Position numbers and translations under genes: made by a program. A stretch of DNA of 64,000 bases from positions 2,656,001 to 2,720,000 of the forward strand of contig OZ242005.1 of the NCBI GenBank assembly GCA_965204725.1. The letters are read 5' to 3'. Shown in pieces: positions 1 through 9,058 of the stretch. Numbering within the stretch: position 1 is the first letter of the stretch; every line of letters begins with the position of its first letter. The notes under the pieces are model-generated. The model ran no database searches. It worked only from the letters and a program-made list of their open reading frames with translations, and was not told where the DNA came from. Source of the DNA: Candidatus Latescibacterota bacterium. Its GTDB lineage: Bacteria; Latescibacterota; UBA2968; UBA8231.

Positions 1-603
1 TTCCTCACACACTAACGAACTCAACACCCCCATGTGCGCCAACACACTGTGCTTAACCGCACGAGGCACCGCCAATTCCTCGGTCGTCTCCACACACCGA
101 CGCAACCACGAGGCCACCCCCAATCCTTCGGGACGCCCCATCAACGGCGTAAAGGGCAACACCCACACATTGCCCGACGACAAATACGTCTCGCCATCCA
201 ACGCGATCAAGCGAATCACCTTATAGCGCAGCACGACCTCATGGCCGACGATCTCTTGCACGTACTGCCCCGGATCGCGCCTACCCGCGTCGGGACGCAG
301 GTAGAGCACATACGACAACAAGGGCAAGCCATACTCGGCAAGGCAGCGTCCCATATAGCCGGCCATCCGCTGCGGCATAGGCATCTTGGTGCTGTCGGTG
401 GTTTGAAACTCGCAGTGAACCAATGCTTCTTCCCCGTCGAGCCGGACGCGGAGCAAGCTGTCCATCATCTGCGTCTTGACGGTGGGTTGCTCTGGGTTGA
501 GCGTCTCGATCCACTGTCCCTTCGAGTGCCCCAGCAGAAAGGCCAAAAACCCTTGCGGATGGGCGCTCAAAAGCGACTTGGGAACACTATCAAATTCAGC
601 CAT
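1..603 (-). CDS. Rpn/YhgA-like recombination-promoting nuclease / putative transposase (PD-(D/E)XK); runs off the window's left edge
   Basis: Not in the ORF track. My translation from the ATG at 603 is open to position 1: MAEFDSVPKSLL...MDSLLRVRLDGEEALVHCEFQTTDSTKMPMPQRMAGY...VLYLRPDAG...RYKVIRL...LPFTPLM. The D...H.EFQ...M..RM..Y pattern is typical of Rpn-like proteins. Confidence 0.75.
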   Translation of the reverse strand, partial: MAEFDSVPKSLLSAHPQGFLAFLLGHSKGQWIETLNPEQPTVKTQMMDSLLRVRLDGEEALVHCEFQTTDSTKMPMPQRMAGYMGRCLAEYGLPLLSYVLYLRPDAGRRDPGQYVQEIVGHEVVLRYKVIRLIALDGETYLSSGNVWVLPFTPLMGRPEGLGVASWLRRCVETTEELAVPRAVKHSVLAHMGVLSSLVCEE

Positions 604-708
604 CCGCGCCTTTCGTCTCAGGGGAAGAGGTGATGGAGAGAAATATATCCGATGGGCGTACTAAGACAAAGGCCATAGTCGCTCCTCGGATTGCCACGGT
701 GGCGACAA

Positions 709-824
709 ATCCAAGTTGTGGTCAAAGCCCAGATAGGTCATGCCAAAGCCGCCAAAGCCCAACACGCGCTCTTGCAGCCGATGCCTTGGGGCAAGGCGTT
801 GAGAGGTTGGGACGCCTCGCTCAT
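709..824 (-). pseudogene. Degenerate 5' stub of the Ser/Thr kinase gene (copy 3)
   Basis: Reads MSEASQPLNALPQG..RLQE/RVLGFGGFGMTYLGFDHNLD with indels; nucleotide match to the 5' end of 2381..4777. Confidence 0.85.
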
Positions 825-840
825 AGCCGTTCCGATCCGT

Positions 841-2016
841 TCACTTTCGCGCACCATGCCGGCGCAACACCACGGCGGCCTCAGATCGACCATAAGACTC
901 CGCCTCGTGCAGCGGCGTATTGCCCTCCTTGTTTTGGGCGTTGACCTCCGCGCCGTTTTCCAAAAGCACCGCCGTCAGCGCAGAAACATCCGCCATCGCC
1001 GCTATGTGCAGCGGCGTATTGCCCTCCTTGTCTCGAGCGTTGACATCTGCGCCGTTGGCTAGCAACACCGTCGCCACCGCAGAAGCACCCGCCGCCGCCG
1101 CCCCGTGCAGCGGCGTGTAACCCTCGTCGTCTTGGGCGTTGACATCTGCGCCGTTGGCCAGCAACACCGTTGCCACCGCAGGAGCATCCGCCACTGCCAT
1201 GTGTAGCGGCGTATTGTCCTCGTCGTCTTGGGCGTTGACATCTGCGCCGTTGGCCAAAAGCACCGTTGCCACCGCAGAAGCATCCTCCTCTGCCGCCACA
1301 TGCAGCGGCGTATTGTCCTCGATGTCTTGAGCGTTGACATCCGCGCCGTTGGCCAACAGCAACACCGCCATCGCAGAGGCATCTTCCACCGCCGCCGGGT
1401 ACAGCGGCGTCCAGCCCTCGTTGTCTTGGGCGTTGACATCTGCGCCGTTTTCCAAAAGCACCGCCGCCATCGCAGAAGCATCCTTCAACGCTGCCACGTG
1501 CAGCGGCGTCCAGCCCTCGTTGTTTTGAGCGTTGACATCTGCGCCGTTTTCCAAAAGCACCGCCGCCATCGCAGAAGTATCCTCAAACGCCACCACATGC
1601 AGCGGCGTATAGCCCTCGTTGTCTTGGGCGTTGACGTTCGCTCCGTTTTTCAGCAACACCGTCGCCACCGCAGAAGTATCCTCAAACGCCACCACGTGCA
1701 GCGGCGTCCAGCCCTCGTTGTTTTGAGCGTTGACATCTGCGTCGTTTTCCAAAAGCACCCCCGCTGTCGCCTCAGCATCCGCCATCGCTGCCCCATGCAG
1801 CGGCGTCCAGCCACGGTCGTTTTTGACGTTTATCTCCGCGCCCTGTGTGAGCAGGGATTGGGTCAGCACGGGCAGGTTCATGCCCGCTGCAATGTGCAGG
1901 TCGGTCTCACCCCTGTACACCCCTTTCGGGCGGGGCTTGCGCCCCACCTCGGCGGCAAATGCCTGTTCCTGACGCTGCTGCTCCAGTAGCGACGCATCCT
2001 TCTTAACGCTTTTCAT
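841..2016 (-). CDS. Ankyrin-repeat protein (11 repeats), paralog of the kinase's C-terminal module
   Basis: Repeated G.TPLH.AA...LL.NGADVNA units. The N-terminus (QRQEQAFAAEVGRKPRPKGVYRGETDL) matches the kinase stalk/ankyrin junction. Purine-rich GGAAGG upstream of the ATG. Confidence 0.95.
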   Translation of the reverse strand: MKSVKKDASLLEQQRQEQAFAAEVGRKPRPKGVYRGETDLHIAAGMNLPVLTQSLLTQGAEINVKNDRGWTPLHGAAMADAEATAGVLLENDADVNAQNNEGWTPLHVVAFEDTSAVATVLLKNGANVNAQDNEGYTPLHVVAFEDTSAMAAVLLENGADVNAQNNEGWTPLHVAALKDASAMAAVLLENGADVNAQDNEGWTPLYPAAVEDASAMAVLLLANGADVNAQDIEDNTPLHVAAEEDASAVATVLLANGADVNAQDDEDNTPLHMAVADAPAVATVLLANGADVNAQDDEGYTPLHGAAAAGASAVATVLLANGADVNARDKEGNTPLHIAAMADVSALTAVLLENGAEVNAQNKEGNTPLHEAESYGRSEAAVVLRRHGARK

Positions 2017-2127
2017 TGGTTTTCCTTCCGTGTGAGTGTGTGGTTGGTTGCAAAGAAGTGTTAGCCCCTCAGCAGGCCGACAACGCCGAACTGGATGCCG
2101 ATGAGCCAGCGGTCGCGGTCTTGGGCG

Positions 2128-2364
2128 TTAGGGGTTGGGGTGCTCGGCCTTGTCAAGCTGGCAGGCAAGGCGGGCCACCAGAGCGGTGCGGGTGGCAATG
2201 TCCGACGGCAAGTATTCCTTGATGGCGACAGGCTTATCCAAGTTGTGGTCAAAGCCCAGATAGGTCATGCCAAAGCCGCCAAAGCCCAACACGCGCACCA
2301 GTTCGTATTCTTGCAGCCGATAGCCTTGCGGCAAGGCGTGAAGAGGTTGGGGCACTTCGCTCAT
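2128..2364 (-). pseudogene. Truncated 5' stub of the Ser/Thr kinase gene (copy 2)
   Basis: MSEVPQPLHALPQGYRLQEYELVRVLGFGGFGMTYLGFDHNLDKPVAIKEYLPSDIATRT followed by unrelated sequence; about 60 codons nearly identical to the start of 2381..4777. Confidence 0.9.
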
Positions 2365-2380
2365 AGCATCTCCAATTGTT

Positions 2381-4777
2381 TCACCTACGCGCATCGTACT
2401 GGTACAACACCTCCGCTGTTTTAACAGCATCATACCGCTCCGCCCAGTACAGCGGCGTATAGCCATCGTTGTCTTTGGCGTTTACGTCCGCGCCGTTTTC
2501 CAGCAGCAGCACCGCCATCGCAGAAGCATCCTTCGCCATCACCGCCCAGTACGGCCACTCCTTGGGGGGGTAGTCGCTACTAACATACGCCGCCCAGTGC
2601 AGCGGCGTCCGGCCTTCGTTGTCTCTTGTGTTTGCGTCCGCGCCGTTATCCAGCAACACCTTCACCATCGCAGAAGCATCCGCCCTCGCCGCCCAGTGCA
2701 GTAGCGTCCGGCCTTCATTGTCTCTTGTGTTTGCGTCCGCGCCGTTATCCAGCAACACCTTCACCATCGCAGAAGCATCCGCCCTCGCCGCCACACGCAA
2801 CGGCGTATAGCCATCGTTGTCTTTGGCGTTGACCTCTGCGCCGTTTTCCAGCAGCACCGCCGCCGTCGCAGAAGCATTCTTCCACGCCGCCACACGCAGC
2901 GGCGTCTTGCCATCGTTGTCTTTGGCGTTGACCTCTGCGCCGTTTTCCAGCAGCACCGCCGCCGTCGCAGAAGCATCCTCCTCCGCTGCCACATGCAGCG
3001 GCGTCTCGCCAAAGTTGCCTTTGGCGTTTACGTTCGCTCCGTTTTCCAGCAGCACCTTCACCATCGCAGAAGCATCCCGCATCGCCGCCACATGTAGCGG
3101 CGTCCGGCCATCGTTGTTTTTGGCGTTTATCTTCGCGCCCTGTGTGAGCAGGGATCGAGTCAGCACGGGCAGGTTCAGGCTCACTGCGATGTAAAGGTCA
3201 GTATGGCCCCTGTACATCCCTCTCGGATGTGGCTTGCGCCCCACCTTGGCGACAAATGCCTTTTCCTGACGTTGCTTTTTTAGCTTTTTTACCGCCGCCT
3301 GTCGACGCTGCTTCTCTAATGCCGCCTGTTCCCGACGCTGCTTCTCTAATGCCGCCTGTTCCCGACGCTGCTTTTCTAACGCCGCCTGTTCCCGACGCTG
3401 CTTTTCTAACGCTGCCTGTTCCCGACGCTGCTTTTCTAACGCTGCCTGCTCCCGACGTTGTTTCTCCAACGCCGCCTGTTCCCGACGTTGCTTTTCTAAC
3501 GCCGCCTGTTCCCGACGTTGCTTTTCTAACGCCGCTTGCTCCTGACGCTGCTTTTCTAACGCCGCCTGTTCCCGACGCTGCTTTTCTAATGTCGCTTGTT
3601 CCCGACGCTGCTTTTCTAATGCTGCCTGTTCCCGACGCTGCTTTTCCAACGCCGCCTGTTCCCGACGCTGCTCGGCAGCATGATTAACATACATTACACC
3701 CCCAGCCAAGAGAGCAACCACACCCAAGACTACGGCAAGCCTCCTAAAAAAGGGCTTCTTCGGCCGCTCCAGTGGCGGCGTCTCCTGCTCCACCGCCTCC
3801 TGCTCTGCTGCCGCCGCATCACTCGCCAGTTCCTGCCCTGCCGCCTCCTGCTCCACCCGCTTCACACTTGGCACGTCATCCACCACCTCTGCCGCCGTCT
3901 CCACTTCCATCGCCTCCCGCCACGCCCCTACGTTCTGCGGACGAGCCCCCTCATCCACCGACAACGCCCAATCAACCGCCGACAAAAACGCCCCACTCGC
4001 CCGACCCGCACACCGATGCGCCACCGGAACGAGTGGATCATCCCGCATCCTATCGGTCGCATCCTCCGGCACATCCCCCGTCAACGCCCGATAACACACG
4101 CCCCCCAACGCATAAAGGTCCGTCCACGGCCCCTGACGCCCTCGACTCGAATACTGTTCAATCGGCGCATACCCCGGCGTCACGATAGACGTAACCGACC
4201 GGCTCTTCGCCCCAACGGCTTGACGCGCCGCCCCAAAGTCCAACAACACCGGCGAACCATCCGCATCCCGCAAGACGATGTTACCCGGCTTGATGTCCCG
4301 ATGCAGAAAATCAGCCCCATGTACCACCTCCAAACCATCCAACAGCGGATACAGAATCGCTTTGAGTTCGGCTTCGCTCAGCGGCCCCTTGTGCTCAAGA
4401 CGCGCCGACAAAGTCTCACCCTCGGCATATTCCATCACGATATACGCCGTACCATGCGCTTCAAAGAAACGATACACTTTGATGATGTGGCGATGGTCAA
4501 AGCGGGCTAAGGTGCGGGCTTCGTCCAAGAACCGCTCCAGCCCCCATTGAAAATCGCCGCGAAAATTGCTGGCTTGCGGGGCGACGCTGCGGTCGGCAGT
4601 GCGGATGGCAATGTCGGAGGGCAGGTATTCCTTGATGGCGACCGCTTTGTCCAAGTTGTGGTCAAAGCCCAGATAGGTCATGCCAAAGCCGCCAAAGCCC
4701 AACACGCGCACCAGCTCGTATTCTTGCAGCCGATGGCCTTGCGGCAAGGCGTGAAGAGGTTGGGGCACTCCGCTCAT
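2381..4777 (-). CDS. Hanks-type Ser/Thr kinase with TM helix, 12x10-aa charged helical repeat and 8 ankyrin repeats
   Basis: Kinase motifs GFGGFG, VAIKE, HRDIKPGN, DFG, GYAPIEQ; TM LAVVLGVVALLAGGVMYV; (EQAALEKQRR)x12; TPLH ankyrin repeats. Confidence 0.95.
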   Translation of the reverse strand: MSGVPQPLHALPQGHRLQEYELVRVLGFGGFGMTYLGFDHNLDKAVAIKEYLPSDIAIRTADRSVAPQASNFRGDFQWGLERFLDEARTLARFDHRHIIKVYRFFEAHGTAYIVMEYAEGETLSARLEHKGPLSEAELKAILYPLLDGLEVVHGADFLHRDIKPGNIVLRDADGSPVLLDFGAARQAVGAKSRSVTSIVTPGYAPIEQYSSRGRQGPWTDLYALGGVCYRALTGDVPEDATDRMRDDPLVPVAHRCAGRASGAFLSAVDWALSVDEGARPQNVGAWREAMEVETAAEVVDDVPSVKRVEQEAAGQELASDAAAAEQEAVEQETPPLERPKKPFFRRLAVVLGVVALLAGGVMYVNHAAEQRREQAALEKQRREQAALEKQRREQATLEKQRREQAALEKQRQEQAALEKQRREQAALEKQRREQAALEKQRREQAALEKQRREQAALEKQRREQAALEKQRREQAALEKQRREQAALEKQRRQAAVKKLKKQRQEKAFVAKVGRKPHPRGMYRGHTDLYIAVSLNLPVLTRSLLTQGAKINAKNNDGRTPLHVAAMRDASAMVKVLLENGANVNAKGNFGETPLHVAAEEDASATAAVLLENGAEVNAKDNDGKTPLRVAAWKNASATAAVLLENGAEVNAKDNDGYTPLRVAARADASAMVKVLLDNGADANTRDNEGRTLLHWAARADASAMVKVLLDNGADANTRDNEGRTPLHWAAYVSSDYPPKEWPYWAVMAKDASAMAVLLLENGADVNAKDNDGYTPLYWAERYDAVKTAEVLYQYDARR
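3302..3661 (-). repeat. 30-bp coding tandem repeat x12 (EQAALEKQRR)
   Basis: Unit approximately cccgacgctgcttttctaacgccgcctgtt repeated head to tail without spacers. Confidence 0.95.
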
Positions 4778-4793
4778 AGCATCTCCAATTGTT

Positions 4794-4896
4794 TCACCTA
4801 CTCACGCCATGCCGGCGCAACACCGCAACGGGCACAAACGCACTCATTGCCGCCGCGTCCGGTGTGAGCAAAGATCGAGTCAGCACGGGCAGGTTC
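4794..4896 (-). pseudogene. Collapsed ankyrin-module remnant (first repeat fused to last repeat)
   Basis: Reads NLPVLTRSLLT-PDAAAMSAFVPVA-VLRRHGVSR*. The junction ctcatagcatctccaattgtttcacctac is identical at 4773-4801 and 2360-2388. Confidence 0.75.
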
Positions 4897-4959
4897 CGTT
4901 CCTTTGGTTGGCCATTTTATTCGGCGGTCATCGCATCGATCAAGCGCGTGAAGTCGCCC

Positions 4960-6834
4960 TCAGTCGTCTTGCGGCGGGGATTCGACCTCGCGGGTGGGGA
5001 CGGTGGACATCTCCAGCTTAAAGGCCAGCAGATACATCATAAAACAGCCGATGATCCACCACGCAATCTGCCAGAGCCACAGCGAGGGAACTCCCCAGAG
5101 CCAACGGGCGGGATCGGTCTGATTGCCGAGGACGGCAAAGGGGCCGATGGCACAGAGAAACCAAACCACCGTCAGAATCCAGACCGGCGTTTTCCATTTC
5201 TTTTTGGCCTCGGGCAAGGCCGTGTGCGCTTTGAGGAAGTGGTGGTAGCGATCGCGGTGGGCGAGGTCGCTAGCGTACTTAGGCTGGGTGAAAAAGCTGA
5301 CGACAACGACGATGCTCAGATTAAAGAAAATTCCCCAACCGGCACTGTGGAGCGTGAGCGGATAGCGGCCAATGCCGATCAGCCCGCCCAACTCGGTTAT
5401 ATAAGTGAAGGTAACGGCGACGAGCCCGGCGATCAGTCCGGCGACGATGCCCTGGGGCGTGAAGAAGCGAATGTAGCAGATGCCCAGCAGCGCCGGCCAC
5501 ATCTGAAATCCATAGGAAACGGCTGCGCCCCCCAGCAAGACGAGCAGATCGCCGGACGCCAAGCCAACGAACAGGGCTAAGCTGACGACGACGGCCACGC
5601 TCAAGCGGCCGACGAAGACTTGGGCCGAATGCGATGCCTCTTTATTGAAGAAATGGCGGTAGAGATCGCGGGTGATAATGCCGCTGGCTGTGGACATATA
5701 GGCGGCGCCGGTCGATTGCATCGCGGCGACCGCACAGACGGCCAAAAGCCCCAAGAGGAAAGGAAAGCTATCGGCCAAGGTGTCGATCAGATAGGGAACC
5801 AAGTGGTCGGACGCTGGCAAGCCGAGGGGTTTCGTCCCGCGGACCAGTTCCATATCGAGGAGCCGGGCGCCCAGCCCCTGAAAGGCGGTAAAAAAGAACA
5901 TGATGCCGCCGATGACTAAGGAAGAGGCGACGACCTGTTGCCACGGGAAAGGCCGAGGATCGCGGTTGGCAAAGGCCCACATGGAGAACGCCGGTGACGA
6001 CTGAATGCCCATCAAGGCGAACATATAGGTCAGGATCATCAGGCCGGTCCAAGGCCCGCCTTGGGCGTCGAAAAACAGAGTGCCAACCCGCTCGAGGAAG
6101 GAGCTCGACTCTGGCCGAGTCGGAATGGCGACCATATCGGGTTTTTGCTCGGCGAGGGCGGCCAACCCCCCCTTGAAGGCCGTCCAGCCGCCGATCAAGT
6201 CGAGGGCGACAAACCCGAGGACGACGATGCCGAGCGCCAAGAGGATGCACTGGGCGCAGTCAACGTAGGCGACCGAGCGCAACCCACCGGAGGCCACGTA
6301 GATAAAGACGACCACCGAAAGCACAATCGCCCCCCCCTCGACCGAGCCGATGAAGCTGCCCTCCAGCGGCGTGCCGGTCGTCAAGCGGTTGAAAAGCAGG
6401 CCGGATGCCTTGAGCTGGAGGCCGAGATAGGGCACGCTGAATACGAACGCGACGAGGACGGTGAGGAAGCGCATCGCATCGGTGCGGTAGTAATCGCTGA
6501 ACATCTCGCCCGGGGTGATATAGCCAAAGCGGCGGCCCAAAAGCCACTGGCGCTTGAGGAACAACACCCCGGTGAAGGGGATGGTAATGGCGTAAAAAGA
6601 GGCAAAGGCGTAGGGCAGGCCCACGTTGTAGATGGTGCCGGGGTGGCCGACAAAAGTCCAGCCGCTAAAGGAGGTGGCGGTGGCGGCCAGCACAAAGACC
6701 CACAGGCCGATACCGCGGCCGGCAATAAAGTAATCCGCGGCCGTCTTGGCCCGGCGAGCGCCTTTGATCCCCCAGAAGACGCAGTACGACCAATAGCCGA
6801 CGGTAAAGACCAGTAGCCAGACCAGCTTTTCCAT
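4960..6834 (-). CDS. Sodium:solute symporter family transporter
   Basis: DYFIAGR, SGWTFVGHPG, YVASGGLRSVAYVD and AAMQST motifs; many TM helices. Confidence 0.9.
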   Translation of the reverse strand: MEKLVWLLVFTVGYWSYCVFWGIKGARRAKTAADYFIAGRGIGLWVFVLAATATSFSGWTFVGHPGTIYNVGLPYAFASFYAITIPFTGVLFLKRQWLLGRRFGYITPGEMFSDYYRTDAMRFLTVLVAFVFSVPYLGLQLKASGLLFNRLTTGTPLEGSFIGSVEGGAIVLSVVVFIYVASGGLRSVAYVDCAQCILLALGIVVLGFVALDLIGGWTAFKGGLAALAEQKPDMVAIPTRPESSSFLERVGTLFFDAQGGPWTGLMILTYMFALMGIQSSPAFSMWAFANRDPRPFPWQQVVASSLVIGGIMFFFTAFQGLGARLLDMELVRGTKPLGLPASDHLVPYLIDTLADSFPFLLGLLAVCAVAAMQSTGAAYMSTASGIITRDLYRHFFNKEASHSAQVFVGRLSVAVVVSLALFVGLASGDLLVLLGGAAVSYGFQMWPALLGICYIRFFTPQGIVAGLIAGLVAVTFTYITELGGLIGIGRYPLTLHSAGWGIFFNLSIVVVVSFFTQPKYASDLAHRDRYHHFLKAHTALPEAKKKWKTPVWILTVVWFLCAIGPFAVLGNQTDPARWLWGVPSLWLWQIAWWIIGCFMMYLLAFKLEMSTVPTREVESPPQDD

Positions 6835-6850
6835 GTGACCGCGCTTGGGG

Positions 6851-7759
6851 CTAGTCGGAAAGCCCCACGTCGAAGAGCATGTTGGTAATTTTCCACGAGC
6901 CGGAGCGGCGGCTCAGCGTCCAGAACACGTAGCGTTCTTTGGCGTGTTTGGCCGGGCCTTTGACGTGCTCGACGGCCACTTTTTCGTGCGTGACCGCCAA
7001 GGCTTCGTCGCCGGCCGGGCCAATCGCCGTGTGGAGCACTTTGCGGTCGAGGTCGTACTGCACGTAGGGCAGCCGCTTGTCGAGCCACTTTTCTAGCTCC
7101 TCGCTGCCGCTGAAGGCGATTTTGTAGGAGGCCGGCTTAAACGTGCCCAAGGCGTCGTAGCCCGTGAAGTTTGCGTCGAAGAAGCCGAGGATGCCGCTGC
7201 CGGCGGCCCACGCTTGGCTTTCGCGCTGCAACAACTCGGCGATTTCGCCGTTGGCCGGTGCGCCCGCTGCCGGCAAGAGCGTGTCGCCCAAACCCGCGAC
7301 CATGGCCGTGGCCAGCCAGTCGTCCTCTTCCTTGAGAAAGGTCCAAAAGCGGTGGACGGCAACCGGCGTGGCCTCGCTCGTCTGGCGATCGACGACGCGC
7401 CCGGAGTCCAAGCTGGTGGCAATGGCGTGGGTGGCGCGCACCGCGATAAAGGGAACCGAGCGCACCACCTCGTAGCGCTGAGTGCTGAGATCGGCCGCGA
7501 GTTGGCTGGCGAACGCATCGCGGTTTTCGTGCCGCACAGTCCAAGCGCGCGGGTCGGCGTTGGCGTGGCCCTGATAGGCTACGAAGTGCGGGTGGTATGC
7601 CTTGAGAGCCAGCTCGACATCGGCCCGGCGATACCCGGCGATGTCGTTGGCGAGGGCTTGGCGAATGAGGAGGGTCTCGGGCGTTTCGCCGGCGCGGCTG
7701 GGCGCGGCAAACGGCGGCAGGACCAAGAGGACGAACAACAGGCAGATTGCGTTTTGCAT
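6851..7759 (-). CDS. Exported protein with two NTF2/SnoaL-like domains
   Basis: Signal-peptide-like N-terminus (MQNAICLLFVLLVLPPFAA); two halves ending FWTFLKEEDDWLAT and FWTLSRRSGSWKIT. Confidence 0.6.
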   Translation of the reverse strand: MQNAICLLFVLLVLPPFAAPSRAGETPETLLIRQALANDIAGYRRADVELALKAYHPHFVAYQGHANADPRAWTVRHENRDAFASQLAADLSTQRYEVVRSVPFIAVRATHAIATSLDSGRVVDRQTSEATPVAVHRFWTFLKEEDDWLATAMVAGLGDTLLPAAGAPANGEIAELLQRESQAWAAGSGILGFFDANFTGYDALGTFKPASYKIAFSGSEELEKWLDKRLPYVQYDLDRKVLHTAIGPAGDEALAVTHEKVAVEHVKGPAKHAKERYVFWTLSRRSGSWKITNMLFDVGLSD

Positions 7760-7782
7760 GGCGGGAGAAAGGGGGGTTAGGG

Positions 7783-8997
7783 TCAACTCGACCCGAGCTG
7801 ACCTAAGGCCCACTCGGCGTAGTAGGAAACCGTGGAGTCGCTATCGCGGCGCAGTTTTTCGAGTTGGGCGCGGCTTTGGTCGCCGCCGATGTGGCCGAGG
7901 GCAATGGCGGCATTGGCCCGCACGTCGGCGACCTCGTCCATGGTGGCCGCCAGCAGGGCAGTGAAGGCGGATTGGACGCGCGCTTGGCCCAAGACTTGGG
8001 CTGCGCCCGCACGGGCGAGCGAATCCTCGGCGCGGAGGGCGGCTATGAGCTGGGATTCGACCGCGCCGGATTGCCGCTGGACATCGGTGAGAAACTTGAC
8101 AGCATTGGCGCGGAGGATGGCGTCGGTATTGCGCAGGGCCTCAAAGAGAAACTCAATGCCCTGACTGCGCCCCATGGTCGCCAAGGCGGCGGCCGTGCTA
8201 AAGCGCACTTGATTGCTGGGGTCGGCCAGCAGGTCGGCCAAGGCGGGCGAGGTGCTCTCGTCGCCGATGTAGCCGAGGGCTTGCGCGGCGCGCTGGCGGT
8301 GGGCCGGGGCTTCGTCCTCTAGCTGGGCGACGAGTTGGTCCTTGACCTTGGCGATCACCGAGCGCAGCGCGGCTTGATGCGGGCCGGGGCGATCTCTCAG
8401 TTCCACGAGCAGCGGGACGCCGAAGTAGCCAGACTCTTCTAGCCCTTGCAGGGCCGTTTGGGTTCGCTCGGAGTCGCTGCTGGCGAGGGCCGCTTCGATC
8501 TCGCTCGTGCCGCGATCGTCGTCCATCTTGAGCAAGGCAATGGCCGCGTGGATGCGGATGATGGGATCGGAATCCCCGAGCTGGGCTTTGGCCGCATCCA
8601 CGCCCGCTTGGACGTAGCCGGCTTGACCCATGGCCCACAGGCAGGCGATGCGCTCGCGGTCTGTGTACGCGGTTGTGATCCGATCCTTGAGGGCGGCCGT
8701 AGCCCCGCGCGGCTTAATGCGGCCCAGCACTCGGGCGCAACCGATGCGGAGTTTTTCTTGTTCGTCGCGGAACTCGCGGTAGTTCTCCCCGAGGTACAGA
8801 TCGGGGTTGAGGCGGGCGATGAGCTGGCGAGCGGCGGGCCGACCAATGGCGGCCAATTCGTCGATGGATTGCTGATAGGCCGGCGAATCCACTGGGTTCG
8901 CGGCCATCTGCTCTAGGAGCTCAACGACCTGCTCTTCGGTGGTGCTACAGGCCGTGAGGCCCACGAGCAGCAGACAGGGTAGGTGCTTGGCGATCAT
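7783..8997 (-). CDS. HEAT-repeat lipoprotein
   Basis: Lipobox LTAC; repeated L.D....VR..AA.ALG units. Confidence 0.85.
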   Translation of the reverse strand: MIAKHLPCLLLVGLTACSTTEEQVVELLEQMAANPVDSPAYQQSIDELAAIGRPAARQLIARLNPDLYLGENYREFRDEQEKLRIGCARVLGRIKPRGATAALKDRITTAYTDRERIACLWAMGQAGYVQAGVDAAKAQLGDSDPIIRIHAAIALLKMDDDRGTSEIEAALASSDSERTQTALQGLEESGYFGVPLLVELRDRPGPHQAALRSVIAKVKDQLVAQLEDEAPAHRQRAAQALGYIGDESTSPALADLLADPSNQVRFSTAAALATMGRSQGIEFLFEALRNTDAILRANAVKFLTDVQRQSGAVESQLIAALRAEDSLARAGAAQVLGQARVQSAFTALLAATMDEVADVRANAAIALGHIGGDQSRAQLEKLRRDSDSTVSYYAEWALGQLGSS

Positions 8998-9058
8998 GGT
9001 CTATGGCGGGGTTAGAGGTGGGCAAGTGCGGATAAGGTACGCGGTGAGAGGCCATAAA

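Follow-up and report, generated by a model that had tools for sequence, protein, structure and literature searches.

The question raised by this locus is why one complete receptor gene is surrounded by repeated starts and ends of genes like itself. The window is a stretch of 64,000 nucleotides (nt; positions 1–64,000) from a Candidatus Latescibacterota genome (GCA_965204725.1, contig OZ242005.1), and the block under study (604–4957, minus strand throughout) carries three ankyrin-repeat (ANK) ends with TGA stops at 4794, 2381 and 841, each followed after 16 nt by an ATG (4777, 2364 and 824) of the same kinase start. The first two 16-nt spacers are identical and contain GGAG, and the third is different. 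An earlier sequence-only reading had noticed these three ends and starts together with a single complete unit, and the coordinates were confirmed on the minus strand; of the three starts, that at 4777 alone leads into a complete gene. That reading saw in the incomplete modules a spare sensor cassette for the receptor. We consider it probable (about 0.7) that the block is instead a strain-variable patchwork, produced by ordinary recombination, of a working receptor kinase with an extracytoplasmic ANK sensor, a probably working anchor-less ANK gene and inherited scars. The patchwork is an insertion in a sponge-associated bacterium, with a conserved transporter gene on either side of it. Of its two presumed working genes, one would encode a receptor-type Hanks kinase and the other an ANK protein of 11 repeats that has neither kinase nor anchor. 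The scars (a remnant of an ANK N-terminal capping repeat, N-cap, and tail, two stubs from kinase 5' ends, what remains of a small coiled-coil open reading frame, ORF, and pieces of an Rpn-like ORF) appear to have been left when ragged pieces of tandem kinase–ANK arrays were copied between loci with microhomology-type joints. In the following, G000 is the source genome and other G numbers are other genomes, L numbers are loci, X numbers are public runs and P numbers are homologues of the receptor.

The intact receptor gene (2381–4777, 798 residues, aa) is the sole whole kinase–transmembrane (TM)–stalk–ANK gene here. Its kinase domain (4061–4720; Pfam Pkinase at aa 20–239, E=2.1e-36) scores 126 bits for PF00069 against a cut-off of 31.7, and the glycine loop (GFGGFG), HRDIKP and DFG can be read intact in the translation, features by which it is a Hanks-type Ser/Thr kinase. 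A hydrophobic segment follows at aa 343–362 (3692–3751), in which the hydrophobic 18-mer at aa 343 is preceded by basic residues, and after it a stalk (3269–3685) built of 13 copies of a 30-nt, ten-residue unit, QRREQAALEK, the last copy being degenerate (repeat family D2). In a single-sequence AlphaFold2 model of aa 340–798 (mean pLDDT 79.5) the stalk is one unbroken helix of 139 residues (aa 365–503, block-mean pLDDT 71–86), and about 23 low-confidence residues, corresponding to the flexible linker (3200–3268), lead to an ANK solenoid of eight repeats (2384–3199) with block means mostly of 81–97 except for one low-confidence inserted loop. If the helix is straight, at 1.5 Å per residue, the stalk would be approximately 20 nm long. 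The 33-residue repeats exceed the Pfam threshold (Ank_2, E=3.2e-58, 194.7 bits) and form a solenoid in the model, as in ankyrin-repeat proteins. The best NCBIfam kinase model, PknB_PASTA_kin, reaches 120 bits against a cut-off of 450, indicating that the receptor is not its equivalog, and no curated equivalog fitted the receptor in the NCBIfam comparison. Anti-phage kinase systems were also considered and rejected: the PADLOC matches to PD-T4-6 and MADS Mad6 are confined to the kinase domain (aa 12–297) or to the ANK repeats, NCBIfam MAD6 gives 93.5 bits against a cut-off of 460, and no partner genes were seen in 1–9000.

The orientation of the receptor in the membrane is suggested both by its own layout and by its relatives. 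Within the genus, the stalk–linker–ANK module occurs in four settings, namely behind a kinase, behind a TM anchor, behind a signal-peptide-like N-terminus and with nothing in front. A short basic N-terminus and a TM segment precede the module at L022:1263-2225, L025:1638-2573 and in at least four genes of L003 in G000. Because the kinase is N-terminal to a single TM segment, and because paralogues have TM or signal-peptide-like N-termini at the same place, the stalk and ANK repeats are predicted to lie outside the cytoplasmic membrane, and the kinase should be cytoplasmic. In two genes, L026:922-1788 (G022) and L027:1027-2178 (G002), the signal-peptide-like N-terminus ends in a cysteine before the module, and these are possible lipoprotein versions.

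The block is bordered upstream by a sodium:solute symporter gene (4960–6834, minus strand; Pfam SSF, E=8.8e-30), orthologues of which, 85–94% identical, are found in 27 of 30 same-genus genomes. The region downstream of the symporter was compared in the 17 of these 27 genomes in which it lies on long contigs, and in 14 of the 17 an antiporter-family gene begins within a few nt of the symporter stop. As the flanking transporter genes abut in these genomes, the block, judged from gene order, is a lineage-specific insertion. The other three genomes have at the same site a 326-aa ORF alone with the same copy of its 3' end at the left border (G046), a degenerate kinase stub only (aa 1–74; G019) and about 150 unrelated nt (G044). 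In the window, the copy of the 3' end of the 326-aa ORF forms the left end of the inserted block (4916–4952, minus strand, about 37 nt, 89% match), in the same arrangement as in G046. The 326-aa ORF itself, a multi-copy Rpn/DUF4351-like ORF, lies on the minus strand at 1–603 and runs past the window start (G000:C1:2655623-2656603; L004:9623-10603), and its stop is 4 nt ahead of a 564-aa Na+/H+-antiporter-family gene. About 100 nt separate this ORF from the nearest kinase stub, and its upstream region and start (590–672, minus strand) are 85.7% identical over 84 nt to C1:4492530-4492613, a fragment that stands before the kinase gene K532 in the array L001 described below.

The stretch is present in public runs of 7 studies, whose sources are sponge metagenomes or coded organisms. 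Four of these (X1, X3, X5 and X7) were compared over 560–5000, all of them as unitig-type contigs, in which rare variants are dropped. In X1, the probable source run, the unique pieces have a depth of 85–100 and no differences. In X5, a joint connects 2185 to 4909 and skips 2723 nt, with 21 other letters between, a shorter side of 78 letters and a depth of 54; the pieces of the free ANK ORF have a depth of 45–56 and those of the receptor ANK repeats 9–13. From this joint and the depth contrast, the dominant X5 strain is a form with the free ANK segment present and without exactly 2186–4908, which comprises the ANK remnant, the receptor and kinase stub 1. The block thus consists of at least two separately variable segments. 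For the 21 replacement letters no exact match was found in the fetched loci, and their likeness to L001, about two thirds, is judged by eye. X7 is one 99-nt ANK repeat shorter (side of 122 letters), and the site of the missing repeat coincides with the longest exact internal repeat of the receptor (75 nt). Variation of the same kind is seen between receptor orthologues that are 78–96% identical, which by motif count have from 5 (P0009) to 13 (P0005) stalk repeats, against 12 in the receptor, and from 3 (P0009, N-cap included) to 8 ANK repeats. P0001, 96% identical, is set apart by one stalk unit and by three residues swapped between neighbouring repeats. In the genome comparison and in the X5 and X7 forms the locus is unstable and modular, in line with the earlier reading, and has no fixed structure in relatives. 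Joints with sides below 30 letters (e.g. 924–1292, 1118–2584, 1509–2475 and 1707–2475, and likewise 2112–4909, 2507–2597, 2611–2982 and others) were set aside as likely cross-matches between paralogues, and a joint from 2349 to 4887 (23 other letters) is accounted for by the remnant at L001:2957-3035.

The origin of the fragments can be approached through L001, a second array in the source genome (C1:4.484–4.496 Mb, 1.8 Mb from the window), in which three kinases are intact. They are K473, K532, whose membrane C-terminus is of another kind, and K599, which carries 3.5 stalk repeats and an ANK module. Kinase stub 2 of the window (709–824, minus strand) has a 12-nt deletion, a 1-nt frameshift and a break after DHNLD, and the terminal stub of L001 shares with it the 12-nt deletion, the break after the DHNLD codons and about 35 nt beyond, the two being 85% identical over 234 aligned columns. 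The frameshift is specific to this strain, as X3 and X5 have an extra base at 782. The ANK remnant (4794–4896, minus strand, repeat family D8) consists of the N-cap block and a short C-terminal tail that ends at the stop at 4794, without repeats between; its N-cap block (4854–4896) is 91% identical to that of the receptor. The 5' breakpoint of this remnant, where 16 non-ANK nt (4896–4911) are joined to the middle of the N-cap, recurs at L001:2957-2985. Upstream of K473 the order in L001 is a C-terminal fragment of the 326-aa ORF, an intact small coiled-coil ORF and then the 16-nt/N-cap junction, and the 37-nt copy at the left border of our block resembles, by eye, the end of the Rpn-like fragment there. 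Since these two breakpoints are identical at the window and in L001, the fragments came in broken; they were copied in that state and are inherited scars and not units that decayed in place. That the breakpoints pre-exist in a paralogous array also points to the copying of ragged array pieces between loci. At least four ancestral units had been postulated for this locus. The two breakpoints held in common with the array at C1:4.48–4.50 Mb, together with the X5 joint, speak for at least two separately acquired segments in place of those units. Simple tandem duplication with decay, which the sequence-only reading had named as its alternative, comes closer, in the amended form of segmental copy-and-paste between paralogous arrays followed by decay.

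Kinase stub 1 (2183–2364, minus strand, codons 1–61, repeat family D5), the frame of which continues to a stop at 2128, matches the receptor 5' end at 91% over 229 nt, 47 upstream nt included. The homology ends at about 2183, close to position 2185, where the 2723-nt indel of X5 has its right edge. A 61-nt stretch is identical between the two stubs, and the receptor copy of it is 98% identical. The approximately 75 nt between stub 1 and the start of the free ANK ORF are a remnant of an unrelated family of small ORFs with a coiled coil and a C-terminal TM segment (2070–2141, minus strand), internally deleted and 82–88% identical to five other genomic copies.

Arrays of the type from which such pieces could come are found in the same genus. 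In G019 an array has four full kinase–ANK genes and a terminal stub, each 16 nt after the preceding ANK stop. In a pattern scan of 12 loci the spacing was exactly 16 nt at 8 of 29 kinase starts; the receptor start is spaced likewise and was left out of the count, as the remnant before it is without ANK motifs. The head of the G019 array is syntenic with L003 of the source genome (82% over 1246 nt), a locus 80 kb from the window that now has only ANK genes and kinase fragments. In the source genome the family comprises 4 kinases that are intact and at least 6 that are fragments. Among relatives the kinase subfamily occurs patchily and in several copies, with matches at E<=1e-20 in 22 of 40 relatives and up to 9 matches per genome, often clustered, and 120 receptor homologues have 0–13 stalk units and 0–12 ANK motifs (motif counts). 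Over 286 repeats of 33 aa, entropy peaks at repeat positions 2, 7, 10, 11 and 33 and the framework is nearly fixed; from designed ANK proteins, we take most of these variable positions to line the target-binding face. Close relatives are found in genome contigs titled Candidatus Latescibacterota, and kinase domains 72–77% identical occur in some Gammaproteobacteria metagenome-assembled genomes (MAGs). More widely, kinase domains 65–77% identical to that of the receptor were observed in Gammaproteobacteria-titled MAGs and in other phyla (L042, L044, L051 and others). This likeness across phyla could reflect exchange between co-resident symbionts.

The second gene of the block, the free ANK ORF (841–2016, minus strand, 391 aa; Ank_2 E=7e-96, 315.4 bits), consists of linker, N-cap and 10 repeats, and has no TM segment and no signal peptide. 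The repeat counts given earlier, 11 in the free ORF and 8 in the receptor, are right when the N-cap is included. What was earlier described as a junction block is the flexible linker plus the N-terminal capping ANK repeat, in which the free ORF and the receptor have 43 nt in common at 95% (exact runs of 22 and 19 nt). Of the former description of this ORF, its own ATG and the shared block stand, but it does not start exactly at the junction, as it begins 13 codons earlier. The ATG has an AGGA-type ribosome-binding site 7 nt upstream, and the ribosome-binding site with the first 13 codons (1977–2035) is 81–84% identical to five TM–ANK gene starts in L003; directly after the 13 codons the ORF passes into the last stalk-like words and then the linker. 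Most simply, the free ORF would be a TM–stalk–ANK gene from which an internal deletion has removed the anchor. In G019, two further free ANK ORFs start just before the same stalk-end words, one of them retaining the first five kinase codons, so that deletions of this kind are recurrent. The pieces of the free ORF listed for X3 and X5 show no indels, and the 11 differences listed divide into 7 synonymous and 4 non-synonymous ones, on the basis of which the ORF looks to be under constraint. An apparently constrained gene with a ribosome-binding site and ATG of TM–ANK type does not agree with its interpretation as an orphan cassette. No orthologue above 63% identity was found in the same-genus genomes or among the 120 kinase–ANK homologues. 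Two protein database searches with the free ORF were swamped by generic ankyrins, to the extent that the protein of the query itself was missing, and are uninformative on orthologues.

Several observations weigh against the patchwork reading. The direction of the 2723-nt indel, a gain here versus a loss in X5, depends on collinearity with L001 that was judged partly by eye. Purifying selection on the free ORF would fit a kept cassette as well, and the synonymous count covers 11 listed differences, with 104 more across the whole 560–5000 stretch. Unitig contigs drop rare variants, which leaves room for switching at low frequency in the source sample. In addition, an orthologue 90% identical to the receptor over its full length, P0002, has in repeat 4 a patch of 18–21 residues that is identical to the spare set and absent from the receptor. 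The patch occurs in no other of the 120 homologues, and in the source genome its motif VVAFED is found only in the spare ORF. The patch would mean that the spare set, or a relative of it, can donate sequence, and makes a maintained donor role conceivable; it is known at the protein level only, from a metagenome contig, and may be an assembly chimera.

These points bear most directly on the idea that the spare ANK set and the fragments are maintained to donate sequence and that conversion or crossover at the linker/N-cap block and the stubs re-tools the ectodomain of the receptor, an explanation that we regard as unlikely. P0002, as the sole case in 120 homologues, is a chimera of the predicted type; no receptor-to-spare joint is supported in the four runs as seen in their unitigs, and an X5 joint from 1981 to 3600 (depth 4.5, side of 40 letters), which might be taken for a stalk-to-spare-ANK join, was rejected as indistinguishable from a paralogue. 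The shared blocks (43 nt at 95% in the linker/N-cap, 61 identical nt in the stubs) and the conserved spare ORF, intact in the listed pieces of other strains, suit a donor role, but the two ANK sets match exactly over no more than 23 nt at a stretch, which speaks against efficient swapping at the junction block. Variation of pilE from pilS and of vlsE draws on several silent donors, and the expressed copy is heterogeneous within one population. Here one spare set and a repeat-less remnant are present, and the unique pieces of the source run hold no receptor variant at the level of unitigs, which hide rare forms, so that the ongoing switching proposed earlier is not seen. As for a mechanism based on a tRNA, a diversity-generating retroelement (DGR) or an invertase, the ORF list and Pfam results for 1–9000 gave no ORF noted as a recombinase or reverse transcriptase, and the repeat scan covered direct repeats only. 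With no recombinase noted there and the probable source run uniform, programmed switching of cassettes is unlikely, and occasional conversion is possible. Rhs orphan fragments can fuse with the main gene by recombination and are without initiation signals (PMC3967940), whereas the single spare set here has its own start of TM–ANK type. A wider version, in which the arrays are a slow repertoire generator in sponge-symbiont populations and the spare ORF is both a protein and a conversion donor, is more of a speculation than an expectation, but one with some chance of being right. Receptors, kinase-less ANK genes and fragments would then trade short tracts and whole repeats, and the ANK sensors, and their reach as set by stalk-repeat number, would be re-tuned to each host.

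The Rpn-like ORF gives rise to another explanation, according to which a putative recombination-promoting nuclease moves or seeds array pieces and the block is a composite mobile unit. Pieces of this ORF bound the block on both sides, as they do in G046, where the ORF alone occupies the same site, and its fragments lie at the borders of kinase/ANK arrays, including the flanks of K473 and K532 in L001. In language-model (atlas) features the ORF is similar at 0.97–0.98 to clusters named DUF4351/Rpn, of whose members 16–97% have DUF4351; these nearest clusters are commonest in Poribacteria and Cyanobacteria. On the other hand, the approximately 15 further full-length paralogues in the family, which also includes fragments, are only 41–49% identical, indicating no recent burst. 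The ORF, which contains nine four-residue GIEQ repeats in a run, has no Pfam family match and reaches TIGR01784 below the cut-off (E=6.5e-6, 26.1 bits against 52.1) with the short repeat region only. Target duplications or terminal inverted repeats were not seen, no inverted-repeat search having been made, and association of the ORF with arrays is not proof of causation. Altogether we find a mobile unit a doubtful explanation, with the odds clearly against it. A misjoining of paralogue repeats in the assembly is conceivable in a region with so many 30-nt and 99-nt repeats and 5' ends of paralogues, but is very improbable: unitigs of public runs bridge each of the junctions at stub 2, the free ANK ORF, stub 1 and both receptor ends, the depth in X1 is even, and other runs have the same junctions. 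The module order thus withstood the check for misassembly that had been proposed together with the cassette idea.

If the patchwork reading is correct, the working receptor may function as follows. The ligand of the ANK solenoid would be a protein, bound in the periplasm or on the cell surface, clustering driven by the ligand would turn the kinase on, and the kinase would signal through FHA and PP2C partners like those beside a paralogue. Diversity would arise without dedicated switching, by ordinary recombination, both homologous and illegitimate, whose products are sifted by selection acting on the binding face of the ANK repeats. The interval between K473 and K532 (L001:4479-11504; G000:C1:4485478-4492503) is a signalling-type cluster with two proteins having trypsin-like and FHA domains, a vWA protein and a MotA/ExbB-like protein, and, by eye only, two further FHA-like ORFs and a PP2C-like phosphatase. 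The proteins of this cluster are likely partners of the kinases.

Among known systems, the closest in architecture are PknB, with PASTA repeats, and PknD, with an NHL beta-propeller: an N-terminal cytoplasmic kinase, a single TM segment and a repeat-type sensor outside, here predicted from sequence and model. The NHL sensor of PknD is mentioned in PMC13747020. Unlike these kinases, the receptor carries its ANK solenoid on a helical stalk in which 10-residue repeats add up to about 139 residues, and belongs to unstable tandem arrays with 16-nt spacing. The abundance of ANK genes in a sponge-associated bacterium is reminiscent of the ANK eukaryotic-like proteins of sponge symbionts, which are enriched in sponge MAGs, those of Latescibacterota included, and linked to evasion of phagocytosis (PMC8163846, PMC13747020). 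In contrast to free ANK effectors, the ANK repeats here appear to be held outside the cytoplasmic membrane, where a kinase, TM anchor or signal peptide precedes them. The ANK genes of Wolbachia, as described in PMC3563639, grow and shrink through short direct repeats, recombine within genes and move between strains, and the same signs of repeat change and recombination are seen here. Our case differs in phylum and host and in the kinase fusion and helical stalk, and no link to phage was seen. The likeness to orphan cassettes of Rhs and contact-dependent inhibition (CDI) systems lies in a partial downstream copy having a short block in common with the main gene, through which a fusion is conceivable. 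Unlike these orphans, the spare ORF has its own start (ATG and ribosome-binding site), marginal homology with a shared block of 43 nt, no immunity gene and no fusion observed in the four runs, and the variable part is a binding domain where Rhs/CDI have a toxin.

In the genomes of sponge symbionts the best-known signature is that of the ANK proteins, for which the way of reaching or sensing the host is at issue; secretion systems are encoded in few lineages (PMC8163846). ANK repeats that are tethered outside the membrane on a repeat-built stalk, some of them wired to a Hanks kinase, would suggest sensing or display and not injection. No description of kinase–ANK receptor arrays in sponge symbionts was found in searches of the open-access literature. 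The presence or absence of the receptor, one ANK repeat more or less and 5–13 stalk repeats (motif counts) provide concrete alleles for work on host specificity. For annotation, the locus is a warning that neat 'cassette' arrangements can be inherited scars of segmental copying.

Some minor observations concern the families and the neighbourhood. The small coiled-coil ORF, intact as a 76-aa copy at L001:2687-2917 and with stop-to-stop frames of 92–159 aa, has a coiled-coil N-part and a hydrophobic C-terminal tail. The family has at least six copies (G000:C1 near 2767938, 3137977, 3137173, 1780800 and 2766402, plus the one in L001), and its Pfam hints, DUF7310 and XhlA, are weak and both below the cut-off. 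At L002 (G000:C1:2554630-2555424) a 264-aa ORF contains about 242 residues of a further kinase of the family, which is cut off there, and ANK ORFs of a different type follow. Counts of promoter-like sites (2 against 1.9 expected from shuffles) and terminator-like sites (10 against 7.2) were uninformative. Beside the symporter, on the minus strand, the window encodes a 320-aa protein with a weak DUF4440 match (6851–7813) and a HEAT-repeat protein of 404 aa (7783–8997; HEAT_2, E=5.4e-37), the N-terminus of which is lipoprotein-like; the latter adds a further eukaryote-like repeat protein to the surroundings of the locus.

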